From NCBI GenBank assembly GCA_028278065.1, contig JANQFA010000095.1, positions 3,349 to 67,348 on the forward strand: a DNA stretch of 64,000 bases. The letters run 5' to 3'. A program made the translations under genes and the position numbers. Positions 1 to 10,718 of this stretch are shown piece by piece. The notes under the pieces are model-generated. The model did no database searches. It had not been told where the DNA came from and saw only the letters and a list, made by a program, of their open reading frames with translations. The DNA comes from Myxococcota bacterium. Its GTDB lineage: Bacteria > Myxococcota_A > UBA9160 > JAFDET01. Every line of letters begins with the position of its first letter. Position 1 is the stretch's first letter.

Positions 1-2878
1 TCTCACTTGAGAATCGCCACGACCGTTCGTAGGCGGAGGACCCAAACCGAAAACGTCGGCGATCGCTGACAAGCCACCGATACGCGAGATCGGCCGCGCG
101 CTCGGGTGCAGCCGCGAGGATCATGGCTACCAGGCGTTGACACGTCAGGAGGTCAGACGTCGCCAGTTGTCTGACTTGCGTCTCGAACTGCCGGAAATCG
201 ACGTTCGCCAGCCCTCCGCAGGCGCACGCAACCGCCTCAAGCATGGCTTCCGCGGAGTCGGGCCGAGTTCGATGCAGGCCATCCCCCCAGATGCGGTCCT
301 CAACGAAGGTAGTGCCATCGCCTTCCCCTACTTGTCCCGCGGCAGCCAGCTCTGCGATCGCTGGCACCAGCCGACGCCACACCACCGAGGAGTGAGTGGG
401 CGCCGCTTTCCTAACAACATCAAACTCGACGCCATCGAGCCCGACCAGTTCGCCTCGCCCTGTCCGTTCACCGAAGACGGAATCGGAAGTGTCGTCGGCT
501 GTCAGATGGGCCGCCGTGCTACGCACTGCTACCTCCAGCGCCTCTACGCACCACTCAGGACGGAACTCGGCAAGCTTGCGCCAAGCGATCGAGAAGCGAG
601 ATATCTCTCCGCGGGCCAGTGCGCGTAGTTGCAGCTCGAACATCTCCCTTGAGTCGTGCGCATCGGTGAACGCAACAGCGTTTGCCACTCGCTCGGGCCA
701 AGGTGACGGTTCATTCTCAAGCTCCTTGAGGGCACGCGCCACACGATCGCCACGTTCGCCTGCGAAGCGCCGGCAGATCCAGAGAGCACGATCTTCAGCT
801 TCTTTCGAGCCAGATCCGAGCCATTGCGCAAGGCTCCCGCGCTCGTCCAAGGCATCCAGCCACCCTGCCGATCGGAGCAGCACGAGTTCCTCGATGTGGG
901 CGGTCCACTCTTCGCGAGCTAGGTACCGCAGTACCAGCTCGACCTCGCGGTCCGAAGGCTGAGCTGCGCTACCGAGAACCTGCAACGCCAAGTGCTTGAA
1001 GTGGAATCGAACTCGATCATGTCCGAGGATCGCATCGATCCCTTCCAGGAACTCCCGTGGGTCCTCCTCACGGAGTAGTTCCAGGCCAAGACGCAGTTGC
1101 TCACGACGAAAGAGCGTCTGTTCCTTCTCAAGCAGCCAGCCCGCAAAGGTCGCGCGGCCAGCGTGCGCGGAATCGATGGCACGCCGCGCTACCTGGTAGT
1201 CGAAGTAGCTCTGATGGGCAAAGCGTAGGCGCCTGCCCCCGCGCGCCAGGATCCCCAGTGCTAGAAGCGCCTCCCCGACACGACCCTCGGCGCCAAGAAT
1301 GCTCTCTGGAGCATCTAGACGCTCCTGTGCGCTCATGAAGTCAATCAACCTCCCGATCGCTTCAAGCGCGTGGGCACCTGGCACGCCAAGCTCCTCAAGT
1401 TTCGACAGCCGGTCGTGCCAAAAAGCGCGAAGAAGGTCAGAGGCTGTTGAGAAGTCGCGAGGCCTGGCCCCATCGGCTCCGAGCTTACTCCACAGTGAGA
1501 GTCCCAACGGCGAGGACAGGACGCGCCGCTGAACCCGTGAGAGCGCGTCGTAGTTGCCGCCCAACGTGGCGATCCGCTCCCTGAGTTCATCTTCATCCAG
1601 AGGAGGGACTCTGATCTCCTCGCAATCCTGACCCTTGACCCACGCTCGAACTTGCGGATCGGTCTCCCAGTCGAATCCCCTACAAGCGACTACGACTCGG
1701 ATGTTGTCGAACGCCAACGCGTCTTGGATGACCTCTTTGCAGGCCTCCCACGCCGCTGGGCCGTGGCCGCTGGTCCATCGGATCGCGTCCAGCTGATCGA
1801 GAATGAGGACCGCGGGTCGCTCGCCTGCTAGCGCATGCAGGCAGAGCCCTGGCGATTCCGGCAGATCGCACCCATCGATTCCGAATCGTCTTGCACTTAT
1901 CGAGGGCATCCGCGCATCGAGCCTGATCGGTAGACATCGAACGCCCCGGGCTCTGAGGTCACGGAGTACGCTGAGGAGAACACAGCTCTTCCCAGAGCCA
2001 GCATCTCCGAGGATGGCGACAATCCGGGCACCGCGTTCCTCTTGAAGAACAGCAGCAACGCGGTCGGCGGGCACTCTCCGCAACAGGTCGTCGGCGATCA
2101 GCTCCGGCGCAAGCGACTCATCGAATTCGGAGCAGAGCGCCTCGATCCTGACGGCGAGACTTGCGTCAGCGGCGAGATCACGGCGACGTACGCCGCTGAC
2201 CTTCAGCCTTTTCGAAAGCCATTCATCTGTCAACGGACGCGCCCAAGACGTGCTCTCAGAAATCAGGTCTCTTAGAACCGCAAGGCCTTGAGACGGCTCG
2301 CCTTCGAACAAAAGGCGAGCGAGCGACAAGGGAAGACTCTCTCCCGAGCGCCCAGGCGGGAACACCTCGGCGCTCGAGCGGGTCAACAGGTCGAAGGCCT
2401 CGTCGCGATGCTCTGGGTTCTGAGGATCAAGCCCAAGCGCGGTGCAGAACTGATGGTGGGACTTTCGAGGCCCTTGAGTAGCCTGGACCTGAACACTGAA
2501 GAACCGGCGTGAATCGCCGCCAGCGCCTTGGGCTCGCTCACAGAGCCCACGGAAGTCAGGAGCCGGATCGCCCGATATGAACGCGTAGCGGAAGCTCGAA
2601 TCGCGCCGAAGCTGATCTCTGAGGTGGCGTAGAACGCCCCTACTTCGGAGGTCGGCTACCGACCAGCTCCCTTTGGACGCGTTGCCCCTCTTGCACTGCT
2701 GCGCCTCCTGTTGACCATCGGCGTAGACAACCCACAGATCGACACCTTCTTCAGCTTCGCCGAGGGGCTCGATCTCGACGGACTTCAGGCTACCCGCAAG
2801 TACATGCAGGAGCTGGAGGGCGACCCATGTTCCCTCGAACCGGTTCCCAAGCTTGTCAGCGCGCCCCCCAGGCTCCAC
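1..2878 (-). CDS. PD-(D/E)xK (Cap4/DUF4297-like) nuclease fused to a P-loop STAND-type NTPase with a long helical C-terminal region. Partial: the 3' end runs off the window, with at least 959 codons visible.
   Basis: Absent from the ORF track because no stop is reached before position 1. My hand translation of the minus strand is open from the TAG at 2902-2900 down to nt 1. The start is GTG at 2878, preceded by GGAG with a 7-nt spacer. The N-terminus reads GNRFEGTWVALQLLHVLAG..IEPLGEAEEGVDLWVV..EAQQCK, a D..ExK nuclease core. Walker A is ILGDAGSGKS (nt 2008-1985) and Walker B is VLILDQLD (nt 1810-1787). A winged-helix-like FAHQSYFDYQVAR lies at ~nt 1221-1183. No other minus-strand ORF in this frame appears in the track. 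Confidence 0.75.
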   Translation of the reverse strand, partial: MEPGGRADKLGNRFEGTWVALQLLHVLAGSLKSVEIEPLGEAEEGVDLWVVYADGQQEAQQCKRGNASKGSWSVADLRSRGVLRHLRDQLRRDSSFRYAFISGDPAPDFRGLCERAQGAGGDSRRFFSVQVQATQGPRKSHHQFCTALGLDPQNPEHRDEAFDLLTRSSAEVFPPGRSGESLPLSLARLLFEGEPSQGLAVLRDLISESTSWARPLTDEWLSKRLKVSGVRRRDLAADASLAVRIEALCSEFDESLAPELIADDLLRRVPADRVAAVLQEERGARIVAILGDAGSGKSCVLLSVLRDLRARGVRCLPIRLDARMPSISARRFGIDGCDLPESPGLCLHALAGERPAVLILDQLDAIRWTSGHGPAAWEACKEVIQDALAFDNIRVVVACRGFDWETDPQVRAWVKGQDCEEIRVPPLDEDELRERIATLGGNYDALSRVQRRVLSSPLGLSLWSKLGADGARPRDFSTASDLLRAFWHDRLSKLEELGVPGAHALEAIGRLIDFMSAQERLDAPESILGAEGRVGEALLALGILARGGRRLRFAHQSYFDYQVARRAIDSAHAGRATFAGWLLEKEQTLFRREQLRLGLELLREEDPREFLEGIDAILGHDRVRFHFKHLALQVLGSAAQPSDREVELVLRYLAREEWTAHIEELVLLRSAGWLDALDERGSLAQWLGSGSKEAEDRALWICRRFAGERGDRVARALKELENEPSPWPERVANAVAFTDAHDSREMFELQLRALARGEISRFSIAWRKLAEFRPEWCVEALEVAVRSTAAHLTADDTSDSVFGERTGRGELVGLDGVEFDVVRKAAPTHSSVVWRRLVPAIAELAAAGQVGEGDGTTFVEDRIWGDGLHRTRPDSAEAMLEAVACACGGLANVDFRQFETQVRQLATSDLLTCQRLVAMILAAAPERAADLAYRWLVSDRRRFRFGSSAYERSWRFSSE

Positions 2879-3258
2879 GGTTCCACTCCGCGTGTCGTCC
2901 TAGGCCGACTGTAAGAGACTTGAGAGGAGCTGTCTGCGGCGAAGCAGAGAGCGTCTGCCTCGAACCACGACCGTACAGGCTACTGGAGCTGGCGCGCTCC
3001 CCATCCGCCCGCGCCGATTTGACGACAAGGCGACGGACGCGTTGCATCGCTGCTTCCACGTTGGGCAGGCAATGGCTTTGCCCTCCGAGTCACCCCGGGG
3101 TTGCCACATCGCCACAGCGAGCATCCGTGCAGTCGTTCGCGCGACCCCGCTTGGCTGCGTGAATCAAGCGCTCAGGCATCACCGTGGGCGCATGCGAGCC
3201 GCCCCCTCAGACGGCTTCAGGGAGCGCTAGCTTTCTGTTCACCCCGGATCACGCGTCG

Positions 3259-3738
3259 CTAGGCCGGCCGCATCTTCTCACGGAGAGCCGCGCGAAACTG
3301 AAGCCGCACCGTCTTCGGGCTCTTGAGGTGGTGAGGCTCCCGATTTCGATAGGCCCTAACCTCCGTGTGAGCGTAGTTGTCCCAGTCTGGATCGTGAACC
3401 GGCTCGAAGGAAAAAGTGTCGATCTGTCCCCTGCGTTCCTTCGCCGTCACGACGAACGTGATGTTTCCGGGGATATCGCGCATCCCGAACTTCCAGGCCT
3501 CCCACCTTCGACGGTTGCCAACTATGACGCTTCGGGGCCCGCTGTACTTCGACCGATTTACAGACATATCTGGAAACCGGATCGCCGAGATATTCGGCAA
3601 GCGCTCATACCCATCACCGTCGATCTGATCCGGATCGATAGCGTGGTAGAATTCCTCATCACGTGCGAACCGGCTGTCCGGCCCTCTCCGTCGAAGCCAG
3701 TTAACTGAGGAAGTCGCGAAGTTGATCAATCGCTGCAC
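3259..3738 (-). CDS. Hypothetical protein (159 aa), third gene of a small overlapping three-gene cassette
   Basis: ORF track entry. It overlaps the upstream gene by 29-38 nt (GTG 3738 or TTG 3729). The composition is protein-like, with motifs SVNRSKYSGP and HDPDWDNYAHTEV, plus RNREPH (Rx4H). Third codon positions are AT-rich, unlike the rest of the window. The antisense ORF 3184..3708 looks less protein-like. Confidence 0.6.
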   Translation of the reverse strand: MQRLINFATSSVNWLRRRGPDSRFARDEEFYHAIDPDQIDGDGYERLPNISAIRFPDMSVNRSKYSGPRSVIVGNRRRWEAWKFGMRDIPGNITFVVTAKERRGQIDTFSFEPVHDPDWDNYAHTEVRAYRNREPHHLKSPKTVRLQFRAALREKMRPA

Positions 3739-4213
3739 GCAGCCTGCTCTCTTCGCTCTCGATGCACTCGACGGCAGGCTGGCGCCCCGCTTCGGAGAAG
3801 ACTAGCCCGACCGATCCATCGTTGAGGAACTCGACGGCAGCGTACTTCGAGGGAGCACGGAAGTTAAACGCGACGCCCTCTTCAACGGACGGCGAGATGC
3901 TCCGAGGTCGGAGGTTGGCCGCGAACAGCAGCCGCGTAAAGCACTCGGCAAACAGCAGAGTCCGAGCGCTAGGAGGACTGGCGCCCTGCGTGTCCCAATC
4001 CGGGGGAAGCACAGCCAGTTGTCGCAGCTTGTCGAGCGCAGCCTTCTGCCAGTCGACACCAGGCGCTAGGTCCCGATAGGACGCACTGCCTCGACGAGAA
4101 TCGAAAGACCGAACGCTCAGGATGACATCTCGACGTACGTCCGCGTCGGTCGTCATCTCCGTTAGCGACAACAGCGGCAGGTGGACCTCATGCGTTGCTG
4201 AGGGGCTAGACAC
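3701..4213 (-). CDS. Hypothetical protein (170 aa), middle gene of the cassette
   Basis: ORF track entry. The GTG start at 4213 overlaps the stop of the upstream gene (GTGTCTAG, 8-nt overlap), which suggests translational coupling. It carries the motif LPPDWDTQGASPPSARTLLFAECF. Codon usage is atypical for the window (TCT, TTT, GAT, CGA). Confidence 0.6.
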   Translation of the reverse strand: MSSPSATHEVHLPLLSLTEMTTDADVRRDVILSVRSFDSRRGSASYRDLAPGVDWQKAALDKLRQLAVLPPDWDTQGASPPSARTLLFAECFTRLLFAANLRPRSISPSVEEGVAFNFRAPSKYAAVEFLNDGSVGLVFSEAGRQPAVECIESEESRLRAAIDQLRDFLS

Positions 4214-4556
4214 CGCTATCAGTCCTCGCTGCGTTCAGTTGCTCGATTCTCTTCTCTAGCCAGTCTCTCAACGCGGTGGCCGTCGGGAGACTCAGGATCG
4301 CGGTTACCTCGCACTCACGAACCGGCCCATCGCGACCCAGGCGTTCGTCCGTCAGCTCGTCGCCAACCTGACCGGACGAGACCTCGTGCGTTGTGCGCTG
4401 GGGAATCGGCTGCCGCTCTGCGTAGAGGGTCATCTGGACAAACCCGTGCGGCGTGATGCCGCCGTGAGCACCGTCCACGTGGATCACGCGGTAGTCGGCG
4501 CTCTTGACGAAATGGAAGTTGATCCTCTCGGGGTGGTCAGCCACCTGTTCCTCCAA
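4206..4556 (-). CDS. Hypothetical protein (112-116 aa), first gene of the cassette
   Basis: ORF track entry with a TTG start at 4556. A better start is GTG at 4544, 6 nt after GGAGG. Beta-rich N-terminal half (INFHFVKSADYRVIHVDGAHGGITPHGFVQMTLY) with a C-terminal helix. It is faintly DUF3467-like in layout only, and I make no family call. Confidence 0.6.
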   Translation of the reverse strand: MEEQVADHPERINFHFVKSADYRVIHVDGAHGGITPHGFVQMTLYAERQPIPQRTTHEVSSGQVGDELTDERLGRDGPVRECEVTAILSLPTATALRDWLEKRIEQLNAARTDSGV

Positions 4557-4732
4557 GCCGGCGCGACGGAAGCTCCTTGGGCCACCGCCGATCTGGCTCT
4601 GTCTTTTCCCGCTGTCACGCTACCCCCTCGGGATCGGCGCGACAAAGTCGAAGAAAAAGCGAATAAGAACCCGGTCCCAGGCAAGTCTAGACCTTCTCGT
4701 CCGAGGGGATCTTTGGTGAGTCCCCGAGGGGG

Positions 4733-4984
4733 GGGGCTGTTCAGGATGCGCCTATATCGGAGAGCGCCGTATCTCGCCCAGGGCATCGCTGTGTGGGGGG
4801 GTACCCCCTTTCGACTCTCCTCCGTGGGGGGGCCGTATAGGGCCGTGGGGCCGTGCTGGGTGGGGCTGGGTGGGGCCCTGTGCGGGCCCCTGGGAGCGCG
4901 CAGACGCAAGCTCGCGCTACTTCTTGCCCTTCCGGGATTCTGGCAGTCTTGGGGTCAGGGGTTCGATCCCCCTCAGCTCCACCA
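4733..4984 (+). ncRNA. tmRNA-like (ssrA?) structured RNA with a tRNA-like 3' end. Alternatively, only the last ~30-40 nt are a tmRNA/tRNA 3' fragment left as an island att site.
   Basis: T-arm AGGGG-TTCGATC-CCCCT (4957-4973), then the 3' acceptor strand CAGCTCC (4974-4980), then ACCA (4981-4984). GGGGCTG at 4733-4739 can pair with the acceptor strand, including a G3:U70 wobble, which is the Ala/tmRNA identity pair. The interior is full of G/C-complementary hairpins (GGGGGGGTACCCCC, GGGGCCCTGTGCGGGCCCC, AGCGCG..CGCGCT). A strong terminator hairpin follows. No cloverleaf can be drawn and no canonical tag ORF was found. About 252 nt is short for a tmRNA. Confidence 0.45.
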
Positions 4985-4993
4985 CTCTCTTCG

Positions 4994-5022
4994 CGGGGTT
5001 GGCGAGATGCTCGCCAACCCCG
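4994..5022. terminator. Bidirectional stem-loop terminator
   Basis: A perfect 12-13 bp GC-rich stem, CGGGGTTGGCGAG / CTCGCCAACCCCG, with a 3-nt loop. It lies 10 nt after the CCA end on the plus strand and 7 nt after the TGA of the convergent giant gene on the minus strand. Confidence 0.6.
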
Positions 5023-5028
5023 TCGTTC

Positions 5029-8000
5029 TCAAGGGCCCGTCCGCCGCAGCTTGAAGACTCCGACGTCCTTGTCGATGTAGACGTCGGCACTCGGCGGATC
5101 GTCGTAGCGCATCCCAAAGCAGCTCCCGCCGCCTCCCGGGTGGAACTGAACGTCGTACGTCTGCGCCCCGATCCCGACCGAGGGCTGGAACGCCGGTATC
5201 GGCCGATCGGAATCGGCCCCGACCTCGGCGCCCTTGGCCACCAGGGTCAACTTCGACTTGCCCGGGGTGGTCGCGTCCGAACGGAGCAGGACGGACCGGA
5301 TACCGTCCGCAGCGGCGGCCTTGTCTACGTAGCGGTAGAGCTTGCCCGGGATCACCTTGATCCAGTTGGGCGACCCCGGGGGGATCGCCAGCTGGGTACG
5401 CAGCGCGTCGTCCGCATAGAAGCAGAGCCCCGCGCCGCCGCCCACGGGGTCACCGAACTCGTTGAAGTCCGTAACTCCACCCCGCAGCCACTTGAAGACC
5501 AGCTTCGCGTTGTCGCCGTTGACCCCGCCGTCCGCCGGCTCGAGGCGATCCTGCATGATCGTCAGGTTGAGGGCGTCGGTCCGACAGGTGGCCGGAACGA
5601 GGGGGCACGCGGGTGCGGCGGCGGACGAGCAGTCCGCACTGCACCCATCGCCGTCGATCTGGTTCCCGTCGTCGCAGGTCTCTCCCGCATTGACGATGCC
5701 GTTTCCGCAGGACGGAAGTGTGCAATTGGGATCGCACGCGTCCCCGCCGGCCAGGTTGCCGTCGTCGCACTCCTCCTGGATCTCCACGGCTCCGTTTCCG
5801 CAGGTCTCCAGATCGCAGGCATCACCGACGCCATCCAGATCGGCGTCGGCCTGCTCCACGTTGGGGGCATCCGGGCAGTTGTCCAATGCGTCCGGCACCT
5901 GATCACGATCCCGATCCGCGACGCCCAGGACGGCGATGTCCTCGACGCACGTGGCGTCGGGGTCGCAGCCCTGTTCGGCGGTGGGCTTGTCCAGGTCGCA
6001 GGTGCGCCCGGTGTCTCGAACGCAGCTGCCGATCGTCGCCTCCGGGTCGGGATCGAAGCAGAACTCGCCGGCACCGCACGTACCCGGCGCTCCAGGTGTG
6101 CATGACGCCGTCGTGTCGACCACGCAACGTCCTTCCGTGACGATGACCTGGTCGCTGCCCTCGCCCGGATCGTCCTCACTCGGGGTTTGCAGCGGATCGC
6201 TGCCCGTCCCGTCGTCGGGATCCGTCACCTCGGCCACCGGCCGCGTCTCGCCGGACACCACGTTGTAGACCTGCACCAGGACGTCGTCCTGGTCGCCGTC
6301 TTCGTTGAGATCCTCGCCCTGGTCTCCCTCGAAGGTGAGGAACCGCACGGTTCTGCTGGAAACCCGGTAGGGATTCCGCGGCTCACACTCGGACAGCCGG
6401 CAGGGAGTGACCGCCTGCCCCGTGTTGAGGAGCTGACCGCCGATCATGTCATACACCTGCAGGCCGTCGTCGCAGCAGTCGCCGTCCCCGTTCAGGTCGC
6501 ACTGGGAGATCGCGACGCAGCCCGCAGGCGCGGAGCAGTCCGGGGAAGGAACCGCCGCATCGCAGAAGTCGAGCTCGTGGCTGCGAAACGCCAGGAGATC
6601 CTCTCCCATCACGAACTCCTCGGCGGGCTGGCGGCGCCCGCTGCCATCCTCGATGGGAAGCAGGCTCAGGGCGGCAGCATCGTAGAGCTGCACGTAGCGG
6701 TCGGCGGCATCGCCATCCGAGGTCGCGTCCAGGCCAGCCTGTTCGGCTTCCGGCGTGATGAACGCCACCAGCTCCCCCGAGACGTCGATCGAATCCGCCG
6801 CCTGACCGACGTTGTCCCAGGAAAACGGCGGAGCGTCGATGTTGGCCGAGCACGGCAGGAACGGCGTCACACCCAAGGGAAGGACGTGAAGCACCCGATC
6901 CGATGCGTCCGCGTCGCCGTTCAGGAACGCCCCGCCCGCGTCGGCCTCCGGCACCAGGCCTGCAATGAAGGTGCCGGACATCGCCACGTCGCTGGCCGCG
7001 CACTGCAGGTTCTGGACGCCACCAGCCGTCGCAAGGTGCACCACCTGATCGTCGATGTCGCCATCACCGTTGAAATTCACACCGCCAGGGCACGCGCCCC
7101 CGCCCCCGGCTCCCTCCGGCCGGAGGAACGCCGCGCTCCCCGCCGCGACGGCGACGCGCCCTGCGGGACACAGGTTCGTCACCACCCCAGGTGGCCCCAC
7201 CGTCGTGTCGAGAGACCTCAAGACGGTGTCGTCGAGGTCTCCGTCGAAGCTCAGATCAGCCCCGAAGTCGCTCGGATCCGGACCGCGGACGAACACGTCC
7301 GAATCCATGTTGCCATCGCCCCCGACCAGGTTGGTTGCTCCGCTGTCGAACACGATCGAGCGACCGTCCGAAGCAAAGGGAGGGACGGCCCTCAGAAAGC
7401 TGGCGGCGTCCGCCTCGTTGCCTGCGGTGTCCAGGCTCATTCGTGTCGTGAGTCCGCTCGCGCGGTCGTGAACGAAGACGTCGTTCACGCCGTTGGTGTC
7501 ACCGTCCACGAGGTTGGTCGCGGCGCTGTAGAACGCGATGAACCGGGAGTCCGGAGACAAGTGAGGCGCCTCGCTCTGCCCGTCCGCCTCTTCGCCTGAC
7601 GAGCCCACGCTGATCCGGGTGGTGGCGATCCCGCCCGGCTCATCGAAGACCCCGTTCTCGTCGGCATCGCGATCATGGAGAAAGATGTCCTGCACCGAGT
7701 TGGTGTCGCCCGCCACGAGGTTGTTCGAGTCGTCGCTGAACACCACGAACCGCCCGTCGCCGGAGATCTGCCCGACCGAGCCCTGATCGTTCCCCTGCTC
7801 GCCGGTCGAGCTCACGCTCACCATGATGATCTCGATCTCTCCGGGGTCGTAGCCATCTCCCTCGTCGTCGAAGATCCCGTCTTCGTCGGCATCGCGATCG
7901 TGGACGAACATGTCGAAGAGACCGTCGGTATCGCCGGCGACGAGATTGGTCGCGAAGCTGCTGAACAAGACGTAGCGGCCGTCGTGAGAGACGCCGTGGC

Positions 8001-10431
8001 CCACCGAACGGTTGTTGCCGCCATTCCCGGCCGCATCGATGCTGATGCGAATCGTCTTGACCTCGCCGGGATCGATGATCCCGTTCCCTTCCCCGTCGAA
8101 GAGCCCGTCTCCGTCCGCGTCTCGGTCGTGAAGGAACGCGTCATCGGGAACGGCGACCAGGCCCCAGTTGCCCTCTCCCGGGGCGAGGTCGTTCGCCCGG
8201 CTCGTGATCACCACGAAGCGGCCGTCGGGCGAGATGTCGGAGGCGAACGAGAAGCCGCCCCCGTCGACGGCCTCGCTTCCATCGGACTGGACGCTCACGC
8301 GAACGGTCGCGATGCCACCCGGCTGGCCCTGCTCATCATAGATGCCGTCCTGGTCGAAGTCGCGGTCGTGAACGAAGGCGTCCCAATCGGCGTTCGTGTC
8401 CCCCGGAACGAGGTCGTCGAAGTCGGCCGAGAAGGCCACGAAGCGACCATCCGCCGCGAATCCGCTTCCCGCAGCACCCACACCGTTGCAACACCCGGGC
8501 CCAAACTCCTCGCCTTCGTCTCCGTTCGAGTCGACACTCACCCGGACGGTCGTGCCGGCTACCCGGTCCCGGATGAACACGTCGCGCACCTGGTTCGTAT
8601 CGCCGGCAACGATGTTGGTGGCGAACGAGGTAAAGGCCAGGTCGCGCCCCCCCCGGCCGAGGAAGCCCGTCGTGCTGAAGTCGTTCCCCTCGCCACCCGC
8701 ATCGGGCAGGCTCAGACGCTCCGTGAGCTGGGTGGCTTCAGCGGCCTCCGGGGTGCGAAAGAAGACGGTGCCGTCGGAGAGCGCGAGCGTCCGGCCGTCG
8801 ATGACGGGGTCGCTGGCGGCGGTGAGCGGGCCGGCAGGCGACAGCTCCCCAACACCAAGGGCGAAGCTCTTCAAGATCGGGTCGAAGACGTTGGCGTTCG
8901 CGTTCGTGTCGGTGTCGCCCTGCCCTGGCTCGGACTCGAGAAACGCCATGACCGACCCCTCGACCGCCACGGCGGGGAAACGGAACGGCCCCTCCTGGGT
9001 CCGCACGGCGGCGCGCCCGTCGCTCCCACCGTCCCCGATGGGCTGAAGGATGCCCGTCGTGCGGTCCCTGAGGGTGACGACGAAATCTCCCGGCTCGCCT
9101 CCCAGAGGGTCCCCGTCGGCATTGCGGTCGACGCCATCCACGTTCTCCGAGATCACGAAGGCGAAGTTGCCTGCGCCCTCCACGAGGCCTTCCAGCGGAA
9201 CCGGATCGTCGAGAACGGCCGTGTACTCCCCTCCGCTACCCAGGAGTACGACCGGCCCGATTCCGGCGTCGTAGCGGTCGCTGAAATCGAAGAGCTCATT
9301 GCTGCAGACGCTGGAGCTGCACTCGCCGTCGACCGTGCACGCCTTGCCCTCGTCGTCACCACCCACGCAGCCGCGTCGCGCGATCCGGATCACGCCTCGG
9401 GGTGCGTCCACCGATCCGAACAGCTCGGCGTCACTCACGGCCGGGTTGGCCAGGGCCGTGAAGACGGGAGGCAGGATGATCCCGCCGGGCGAGTGGGAAG
9501 AGATGAATCCATCGCCGGGGATCGTGACGGGCTGACCCGGAAGGTCCGTATCGGCATCCACATTCGTGGCTCCCCGGGCGAGCTGGGGGATCGGAACCCC
9601 GCCGATGCGCAGCAGGATCCCCGTGTAGTCCATCGGCGCCAGGATGTTGCCCGCAGCGTCCGTGGTGAAGTGCACCTCCGTAATGCCGGGGTTCGCGATC
9701 ATCGCCTCGATGTCGTTGGGGGGCGGCAACGCCACGAAGTGCCCGAACCGTTCGGCCAGATCGGCAGGGCTGGTTCGACAGGTACCGTCGAGACGGAAGA
9801 GCTCGTCCACGCAGGCGACCACGCCATGGGTCGACGTGTCTCCACCCAGATCGGCGCAGCGCTGGGTAGCCAGCCCGCACTGCAGCGGCGCGTTCCGCCG
9901 CGTCACGACGATCTTGGCCGGTCCGGCGAGAGTTCGGTCGTCGTTCACGCCACCGAGCCGATCATCGCTGTCGGGGAAGCGGAACCGGAGTTCGTTCAGG
10001 CTGGGAACGACCAGATCGATGGATCCTCCGGCGTTCAACTCGACGCACTCGGCGGTACCGCCGGGCCCGAGATCGGTATTGCAGTTGCTCAGGTCGAGGC
10101 CGGCACAGCTCTCCGCAAGGACGATGGCATTGGCTGCACCGTTGGGAGGCGTGAAGATCACCGACACGCGGTAGTCGTCCGCCGCGTCGCCATCCAGGTC
10201 GAGATCGACGAAGCCGGTGGACGTCTCGTCGCAGGCCGGCGGCCTCACGGCGACGCTGACGAAGTCATCGGGACTGGCAAAGGGCCGATTGAGGCTTCCC
10301 AGCGCACCGCGGAAATCACTCGACGCGGCGGGGATCACGTCGCAGATCGCGGAGGCATCAGGCGCGAAGGCCAGGAGCACGAGGGCGACGAGAAGCGAAC
10401 ACCTGGCGGAGCGAGCGAGCGGGCGATCCAT
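5029..10431 (-). CDS. Giant secreted multidomain protein (~1800 aa): a 7-blade PD40/TolB-like beta-propeller with Ca-binding-type inserts, thrombospondin type-3-like repeats and Myxococcus-type Cys-rich repeats
   Basis: ORF track 5029..10479. ATG at 10431 follows GGAGG and gives the signal peptide [28 protein letters not shown]. There are seven repeats of the type FxxFxSxAxNLVxGDTNxxxDVFxHDR. [11 protein letters not shown] inserts are present. [27 protein letters not shown] is TSP3-like. CGNGxxExxEeCDDGN..DGCsxxC occurs twice. Confidence 0.9.
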
Positions 10432-10718
10432 GGAGCCTCCACGCAGCATATCCGGGACAGCCGGCTGCACGGCGTTCAACGAAAGAGCATCGGGCGCTCC
10501 TCCTGTATATCACACAGCTCGGTGTAAGGACGTGAAGTATTTCACACGTGCCCTGCTCGCCCGAACGCCGTGTCCCGCGGAGCAACGATCCGTCTCCGGG
10601 TAATCACCGAGCCCCCCCAAGGGGCCAGATCCACCGGCGATGGGAATGGTGCCCACCTGATGATCTACAATCCGGCGGCCTGTTCACCGGACCCCTGGTT
10701 CGACGTCGTGGAAGGGGC

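Follow-up and report, generated by a model that had tools for sequence, protein, structure and literature searches.

Does the G-rich DNA at positions 4733-4984 of a myxococcal contig encode an unusual transfer-messenger RNA (tmRNA), and if not, why does it end so exactly like one? The sequence analysed, hereafter the window, is a 64-kb stretch (64,000 nucleotides, nt) of contig JANQFA010000095.1 of the Myxococcota bacterium assembly GCA_028278065.1 (positions 3,349 to 67,348 of the forward strand). An original prediction, made from the letters of the window, had described 4733-4984 as a single RNA of about 252 nt and offered three explanations for it: a divergent or minimal tmRNA, a non-functional relic of one, or a remnant of the tmRNA gene ssrA left at an attachment (att) site by an integrating island. 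We find that only the last 45 nt of this span (4940-4984) are tRNA-derived, that they almost certainly derive from a tRNA-Ala gene, and that they are probably an integration scar, the displaced native 3' fragment on the attR side, which bounds a genomic island. The feature is real but ordinary: a known kind of integration scar and not a new RNA.

Identity of the tRNA-derived segment

The segment that carries this conclusion is the following.

4940..4984, + strand: 3' fragment of a tRNA-Ala(GGC) gene, tRNA positions 32-76 (45/45 identity; ARAGORN calls at matching loci)

By BLAST, 4940-4984 matches at 45/45 positions the tRNA-Ala(GGC) genes of four Nitrospirota metagenome-assembled genomes (MAGs; L027, L043, L109 and L119), which are 76 nt long and of which the segment represents positions 32-76. 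This identity is observed directly, and the segment can be read element by element: the anticodon loop CTGGCAG (anticodon GGC), the 3' anticodon stem TCTTG and the variable loop GGGTC, then the T-arm AGGGG-TTCGATC-CCCCT, the 3' acceptor strand CAGCTCC, the discriminator A and an encoded CCA. It occurs once in the window. The T-arm, acceptor strand and ACCA at 4958-4984 had been recognised from the start and lie far beyond chance (a 25-mer of the 3' end, allowing up to three mismatches, is expected 0.00 times and found once in the window). Overlooked was CTGGCAGTCTTGGGGT at 4940-4955, which is identical at 16/16 positions to the anticodon loop, 3' anticodon stem and variable loop of tRNA-Ala. 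The 3' ends of tRNA-Ala and tmRNA are nearly identical, reflecting the shared ancestry of the tRNA-like domain, so that T-arm and acceptor strand alone are not diagnostic; because a tmRNA has no anticodon arm, the 16 nt upstream of the T-arm decide for tRNA-Ala.

A broader comparison was obtained by scanning the exact 27-mer GGGGTTCGATCCCCCTCAGCTCCACCA against one genome per species, which returned at least 120 loci. Among the 120 listed, ARAGORN calls an intact 76-77-nt tRNA-Ala (anticodon GGC, CGC or UGC) at 115 and a tmRNA at one (L006); two (L008 and L049) are cut by the end of the stored stretch, and the remaining two (L060 and L095) are lone fragments with the same extent as that of the window. 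When the window is compared with these loci by BLAST, similarity sets in at 4940 for every tRNA-Ala and runs for 45 nt to 4984, so the start of the segment is also a direct observation. No tRNA-Ala similarity was found directly left of 4940, either by BLAST or by alignment to the tRNA-Ala loci: the window reads ...CCGGGATT where the matching tRNA-Ala(GGC) genes read ...GAGCACAAGG.

These comparisons also bear on the suggestion that the segment is an attR remnant of ssrA. As a target ssrA is plausible, being favoured by islands (PMC4383910), and the last 29 nt of the segment are common to at least one tmRNA, that of L006. Those 29 nt are, however, all that L006 shares with it, and the perfect match runs 16 nt further, through the variable loop and anticodon arm of tRNA-Ala(GGC) with its GGC anticodon; we give an origin from ssrA virtually no credence. 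The mechanism invoked and the side on which the intact gene was sought are those that we favour, while the gene and the length were wrong: the remnant comprises 45 nt and comes from tRNA-Ala(GGC), where 30-40 nt of ssrA had been supposed.

Tests for an RNA gene at 4733-4984

The ARAGORN, RF00023 and permuted-model runs on the locus all came out negative or below threshold. With default settings ARAGORN reported no tRNA and no tmRNA anywhere in the 64-kb window, and Rfam at its gathering thresholds found nothing in the window. A permissive local Rfam scan gave 30.9 bits for the tmRNA family RF00023 and 29.7 bits for the permuted family RF04321, each with a gathering score of 47; the aligned part is limited to the acceptor and T-arm, 308 model positions being skipped, and the 3' acceptor strand is paired with the GGGGCTG at 4862, not with that at 4733. 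A relaxed ARAGORN tmRNA search was still negative and detected no tag. The sole stop triplet on the + strand of 4733-4984 is, as had been described, the TAG at 4838-4840, and its frame ends in ...LLRGGAV with no alanine-rich ending. The D-loop analogue (GGxUUCGAC) is likewise absent from its expected place at 4743-4752, where the sequence is AGGATGCGCC. In a tmRNA the long helix leads via GGAC straight to the T-arm, whereas here the T-arm comes after a full anticodon loop, 3' anticodon stem and variable loop. Three further descriptive statements, the GGGGCTG at 4733-4739, the runs of 7-9 G and the G-quadruplex motif GGGTGGGGCTGGGTGGGG at 4858-4875, agree with the sequence. No match to a group I intron or to any other Rfam family was found in the interior at E <= 10.

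The proposed RNA does not stand out as a structural unit. Its minimum free energy, -124 kcal/mol, compares with a mean of -126.3 for shuffled sequences (z = +0.45), of which 129 in 200 are at least as stable, as computed with a tool that leaves pseudoknots unmodelled. The acceptor pairing of GGGGCTG with CAGCTCC, including a G3:U70 pair, is possible, as claimed, while the choice of 4733 as the partner is arbitrary, because the region has a second GGGGCTG, at 4862, and Rfam and the intron mode of ARAGORN choose 4862 and 4847, respectively. With three possible G-rich partners upstream of CAGCTCC (4733, 4847 and 4862), the apparent acceptor stem is therefore no evidence of a gene, and the view of 4733-4984 as one RNA, which folds no better than its shuffles, is not sustained. 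The intron-mode ARAGORN call itself, a tRNA-Thr(UGU) at 4847-4984, was rejected as contrived: it has a mismatched acceptor, a 42-nt intron, and a 21-nt unpaired variable loop that engulfs the genuine anticodon loop.

A divergent or minimal tmRNA of about 252 nt, with GGGGCTG at 4733 closing the acceptor, pseudoknots in the interior and an unusual tag, would account for the T-arm, the acceptor 3' strand, the ACCA, the possible G3:U70 pair and the two sub-threshold Rfam scores. Those scores nevertheless come from acceptor and T-arm alone with the 5' strand placed at 4862, the span has neither a tag nor a fold beyond that of shuffled sequence, and the 16/16 match to a tRNA-Ala anticodon arm has no place in a tmRNA, as L006 illustrates. 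Compared with RF00023 and RF04321, the window thus shares the alanine-type acceptor 3' strand, T-arm and CCA, and differs in having no tag open reading frame (ORF) or D-loop analogue, in its sub-threshold scores and in possessing an anticodon arm; pseudoknots, too, are listed among the features absent from the window, with the folding tool leaving them unmodelled. We see practically no chance that this reading is right. The anticodon arm and the lack of any tmRNA model at threshold speak equally against a non-functional tmRNA relic.

The same ambiguity of pairing applies to another conceivable product, a transcribed tRNA-like RNA in the form of an acceptor/T-arm minihelix with G3:U70, which alanyl-tRNA synthetase might charge or tRNA enzymes process, and which the island would use, for example, as a decoy. 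The encoded CCA and the three potential partners of CAGCTCC are what it could build on. It is extremely unlikely: there is no promoter-like site on the + strand and no structural signal, the uniqueness of the arm and the orphan status of the ORFs beside it offer no sign of conservation, and the DNA upstream of the other lone fragments of this extent is unrelated. Nor is the complete cloverleaf expected of a functional tRNA-Ala present, because only positions 32-76 exist. The fragment is not an RNA gene, and any function would be as the core of an excision site (attR).

A probable island end at the anticodon loop of tRNA-Ala(GGC)

The point at which the fragment begins is informative, since tyrosine integrases classically cross over in the anticodon loop. 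The scheme that divides att sites within tRNA genes into sublocations reportedly comes from Williams in 2002. According to the Islander catalogue, a 3' fragment of the tRNA gene was left by 3760 of 3919 mapped islands, and the anticodon-centred att class comprises 2083 of the 3919; the tRNA gene is made whole again by the 3' copy that the element brings along, and the opposite island end is marked by the native fragment that was displaced (PMC4383910). The window shows the corresponding arrangement: a tRNA gene fragment that starts at a known crossover sublocation, the anticodon loop, and reaches the 3' end, with DNA on its 5' side, the side that the model needs, whose composition and cargo are atypical for the host.

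Under the mechanism that we propose, a tyrosine integrase would have inserted a genomic island into a tRNA-Ala(GGC) gene by recombination at its anticodon loop. The attP of the element would have carried its own copy of tRNA positions 32-76 adjoining the integrase gene, and a crossover within the 7-nt anticodon loop would have fused the host 5' half to this copy, so that a functional tRNA, adjacent to the integrase, would have been regenerated at the far island end. The native host 3' half, together with its native downstream terminator, would have been displaced to the opposite end. The window would accordingly present, in order, the cargo (a STAND NTPase and three orphan ORFs, of lower G+C content), the G-rich arm 4557-4939, the fragment 4940-4984, the hairpin 4994-5022 and host genes. 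Around the fragment, the features are:

2-2899, - strand: N-terminal 966 aa (amino acids) of a 1622-aa STAND-type P-loop NTPase, running past the left window edge (Pfam, PADLOC, Logan contig L001)
3259..3738, - strand: orphan ORF p159 (159 aa), no Pfam or PADLOC family, identical gene on L001
3701..4213, - strand: orphan ORF p170 (170 aa), no Pfam or PADLOC family
4206..4556, - strand: orphan ORF p116 (116 aa; from the ORF list), no Pfam or PADLOC family
4557..4939, + strand: non-coding island-side arm, presumed P-arm of the former attP, unique DNA with micro-tandem repeats
4985..5028, no strand: native spacer downstream of the tRNA, holding inverted repeat I3
5029..10479, - strand: first host gene right of the fragment, an 1816-aa secreted protein with cysteine-rich repeats (Pfam DUF4215, TSP3, PD40-type)

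A compositional boundary coincides with the fragment and is directly visible. The G+C content is 62% to its left and about 70% for the host. The G+C content at third codon positions (GC3) is 0.67-0.77 for the genes on the left (STAND NTPase 0.67, p159 0.69, p170 0.68, p116 0.77) against 0.81-0.95 on the right, and no ORF left of 5029 passes a filter for host-like GC3. The Logan contig L001 extends the reach leftward by 3.2 kb, to about window position -3263, and two 4-kb tiles over -3262..4737 have the most deviant tetranucleotide usage (0.032-0.035 vs 0.010-0.027). From these limits the island would measure at least 8.2 kb, and the intact tRNA-Ala(GGC), like the integrase, is expected beyond the left edge of the window.

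The closest analogues of the fragment are found on viral contigs. When IMG/VR was scanned for CTGGCAG-N5-RGGTCAGGGGTTCGATCCCCCTCAGCTCCACCA, eight contigs matched (L126-L133). All of them have unrelated DNA followed by a lone tRNA-Ala(GGC) segment with the same CTGGCAG onset and CCA end as in the window, and none has an intact tRNA. By flanking sequence they form three element families (six contigs together, L128 alone and L131 alone). In two of the three, each through one contig (L126 and L128), a PF00589 tyrosine integrase gene is observed convergent with the segment, at a distance from the CCA of 7 nt and about 165 nt, respectively; this succession of arm, tRNA 3' segment and integrase is an attP layout. 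There the integrase follows the CCA (attP or attL side), whereas in the window a host gene does (attR side). The arm sequences and cargo of these elements are also unrelated to those of the window, and no similarity was detected between the window arm and the viral attP arms. Contig L126 (UViG_3300005939_001271) additionally carries, within 472-4595, an RVT_1 reverse transcriptase (472-1482) about 2 kb upstream of the attP-like segment, with the integrase next. The flanks of the segment in L127, L129, L130, L132 and L133 are identical to those in L126, and these contigs look like the same element.

We infer integrase-mediated integration at this site from where exactly the break lies, from orientation, composition and cargo, and from the attP analogues on viral contigs, not from a direct-repeat pair. 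With the anticodon-centred ('A') islands of Islander (PMC4383910) the locus has in common the 3' fragment, its 45-nt block of identity from anticodon loop to 3' end, foreign DNA on the 5' side, a native flank on the 3' side, a compositional shift and defence-type cargo. It differs from them in that the defining repeat pair is unseen, the partner tRNA and integrase presumably lying outside the analysed sequence, and in its unusually G-rich arm with faint pieces resembling a tRNA 5' half.

A further comparator is an islet in a Bdellovibrionales MAG (L031, OZ241840.1, 677-5361), where 4.6 kb lie between two direct copies of tRNA-Ala(GGC) and encode a BsoBI-type restriction endonuclease, a DNA methylase and a Schlafen/AlbA_2 ATPase, with no integrase. 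It resembles the window in its defence-type cargo at tRNA-Ala(GGC), in the identical 3' half of its distal copy and in the D-arm of that copy, which is degraded in the style of 4733-4768 of the window; unlike in the window, the distal copy is full length (76 nt, called by ARAGORN), 4.6 kb downstream of a canonical tRNA-Ala, both copies are visible, and there is no integrase. Among the tRNA-Ala(GGC) loci, a tRNA-Leu(CAA) recurs close upstream of the gene in L013, L019, L023, L040, L076, L102, L113 and L120, divergently in all of them but L019, where it is on the same strand; this neighbour, which is found in several lineages, could help to locate the intact copy.

Presumed island cargo and native flank

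The cargo left of the arm, a defence-like STAND NTPase and orphan ORFs, is typical of islands. The NTPase is complete on L001 (1974-6842), where its 1622 aa include C-terminal HEAT repeats. It has weak Pfam matches to nSTAND and AAA families and is a PADLOC candidate (PDC-M54A, 8.5e-19). Homologues number 254 proteins at E <= 1e-10, with 27-65% identity among the 120 listed and, by the names of their sources, from several phyla. In the three homologue contexts examined the neighbouring genes differ (L122 has Mrr-type and HNH nucleases), and these contexts are unrelated and contain no tRNA. The NTPase is probably a mobile defence gene. Between it and the att arm lie the three small overlapping ORFs p159, p170 and p116, the last of which is called as a 112-aa gene in L001; for p170 no homologue but itself was found among 5.8 billion proteins.

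On the other side, the spacer contains a perfect hairpin (4994-5006/5010-5022, 13 bp at 100% complementarity with a 3-nt loop), situated between the tRNA fragment and the convergent host gene that ends at 5029. It probably acts as a two-way terminator; a simple terminator scan did not call it, because it has no T-run. In L013, L011, L085 and L109 the intact tRNA-Ala(GGC) gene is likewise followed by a hairpin of the form GGGGTT...AACCCC. The adjoining 1816-aa gene (GC3 0.84) is not island DNA, and with it the composition becomes host-like again. Its product belongs to a large family (437 matches at E <= 1e-20, PD40/Tricorn-like in homologues), of which the closest non-self members are about 46-49% identical and not syntenic. 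ARAGORN found no tRNA in the 59 kb right of the fragment. Downstream of a paralogue of this giant protein, in L124 (GCA_031396445.1, 16000-25316), an HTH_17 (excisionase-like) gene and a resolvase were noticed, possibly a separate mobile element unrelated to the locus described here.

The G-rich arm and resemblance to a tRNA 5' half

The arm between p116 and the fragment is unique DNA, in the interior of which no repeat family or mobile element was recognised. Its G-runs at 4728-4736, 4795-4801 and 4826-4832 are the only three of at least 7 G in the 64-kb window, all within 4728-4832. It also contains GGGCCGT(A/G) x3 at 4830, 4840 and 4848, the micro-tandem repeat (GGGCCGTG)x2, closely preceded by a third, GGGCCGTA, and GCTGGGTGGG x2.2 at 4855-4876; such short repeats might serve as arm sites for the integrase. 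The part from 4728 to 4880 is strongly G-rich and strand-asymmetric and includes the G-quadruplex motif. At 4851, where it has two mismatches, the independently assembled Logan contig L001 breaks off, a sign that this G-rich DNA may be hard to sequence or assemble.

Three pieces of the arm resemble, in order, parts of a tRNA-Ala 5' half: 4733-4744 (GGGGCTGT·TCAG), 4759-4768 (GGAGAGCGCC) and 4889-4901 (CTGGGAGCGCGCA). By local alignment the resemblance is not significant, about 10% of window tiles scoring equally; as a collinear chain with free gaps it reaches P about 0.001-0.005 (tiles, shuffles) in a test set up post hoc. When the pieces were spliced to the 3' part, ARAGORN did not recognise the resulting constructs as tRNA-Ala. 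L060 has a degraded 5'-half mimic as well (GTTGTAGCTCGG), located upstream of its lone fragment, and together with L031 it indicates that island-side DNA at a tRNA-Ala site can carry such mimics. That the pieces truly descend from a tRNA copy which the att arm once carried in full is possible but rather doubtful, and it would leave the main conclusion unchanged.

The pieces are the chief reason to consider that a tRNA-Ala gene was destroyed in place, with no integrase involved: its 5' half would survive at 4733-4768 and its 3' part at 4940-4984, separated by a G-rich insert of about 170 nt and altered by D-arm indels, and the low-GC DNA to the left would be unrelated to the break. The chain of positions 1-8 and 12-15 (4733-4744), the D-arm (4759-4768 or 4889-4901) and positions 32-76 is indeed unusual, at the P given above, and the second tRNA-Ala copy of L031 has a similarly scrambled D-arm. 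The chain was, however, tested post hoc and plain local alignment gives no significance; two segments compete for the role of the D-arm, which makes one or both of them chance matches; the spliced constructs are not recognised as tRNA-Ala, and the inserted DNA belongs to no repeat family. Neutral decay would hardly leave a 45/45 3' part beside a wrecked 5' part, and the breakpoint is precisely the anticodon-loop position that the integrase-bearing elements use, where the composition also shifts. Zero changes in the 3' part next to a heavily degraded 5' resemblance fit displaced native DNA meeting island DNA and not decay in place, which we regard as unlikely.

A compromise would treat all 252 nt as meaningful, either as a decayed, insertion-split pseudo-tRNA-Ala within the att arm, or with a part transcribed as an alanine-type minihelix RNA recognised by tRNA enzymes. 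The first version can point to the collinear 5'-half-like pieces and to the similarly degraded 5' halves in L060 and L031, and would imply that the element had once captured an entire tRNA-Ala gene; the second can point to base-pairing potential alone. Even taken jointly, we consider the two very unlikely.

Several observations also weigh against an integrated island. In the 8.2 kb left of the fragment that are covered by the window and L001 there is no integrase and no intact tRNA-Ala(GGC) in direct orientation. An exact metagenome scan for the empty-site junction (tRNA end plus flank) gave 0 matches in a collection evidently without this organism, and no tRNA-Ala was found near the homologues of the flanking gene in L124 and L125, which at about 46% identity are probably paralogues. 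The arm 4557-4939, with about 67% G+C, is itself not compositionally foreign, and the simplest integration model does not predict collinear pieces resembling a tRNA 5' half. As to the integrase, it may have been lost here, by analogy with the integrase-free islet at tRNA-Ala(GGC) in L031.

Significance

The chief value of this analysis is one of correction, in that a false annotation as an "atypical tmRNA" is averted. A T-arm followed by a G3:U70-type acceptor strand cannot separate tRNA-Ala from tmRNA, while the 16 nt upstream can. For the organism, an uncultured high-GC bacterium, reading 4940-4984 as an integration scar provides one exact genomic-island boundary, which flags the STAND NTPase and the orphan ORFs beside it as horizontally acquired, possibly defence-related cargo.

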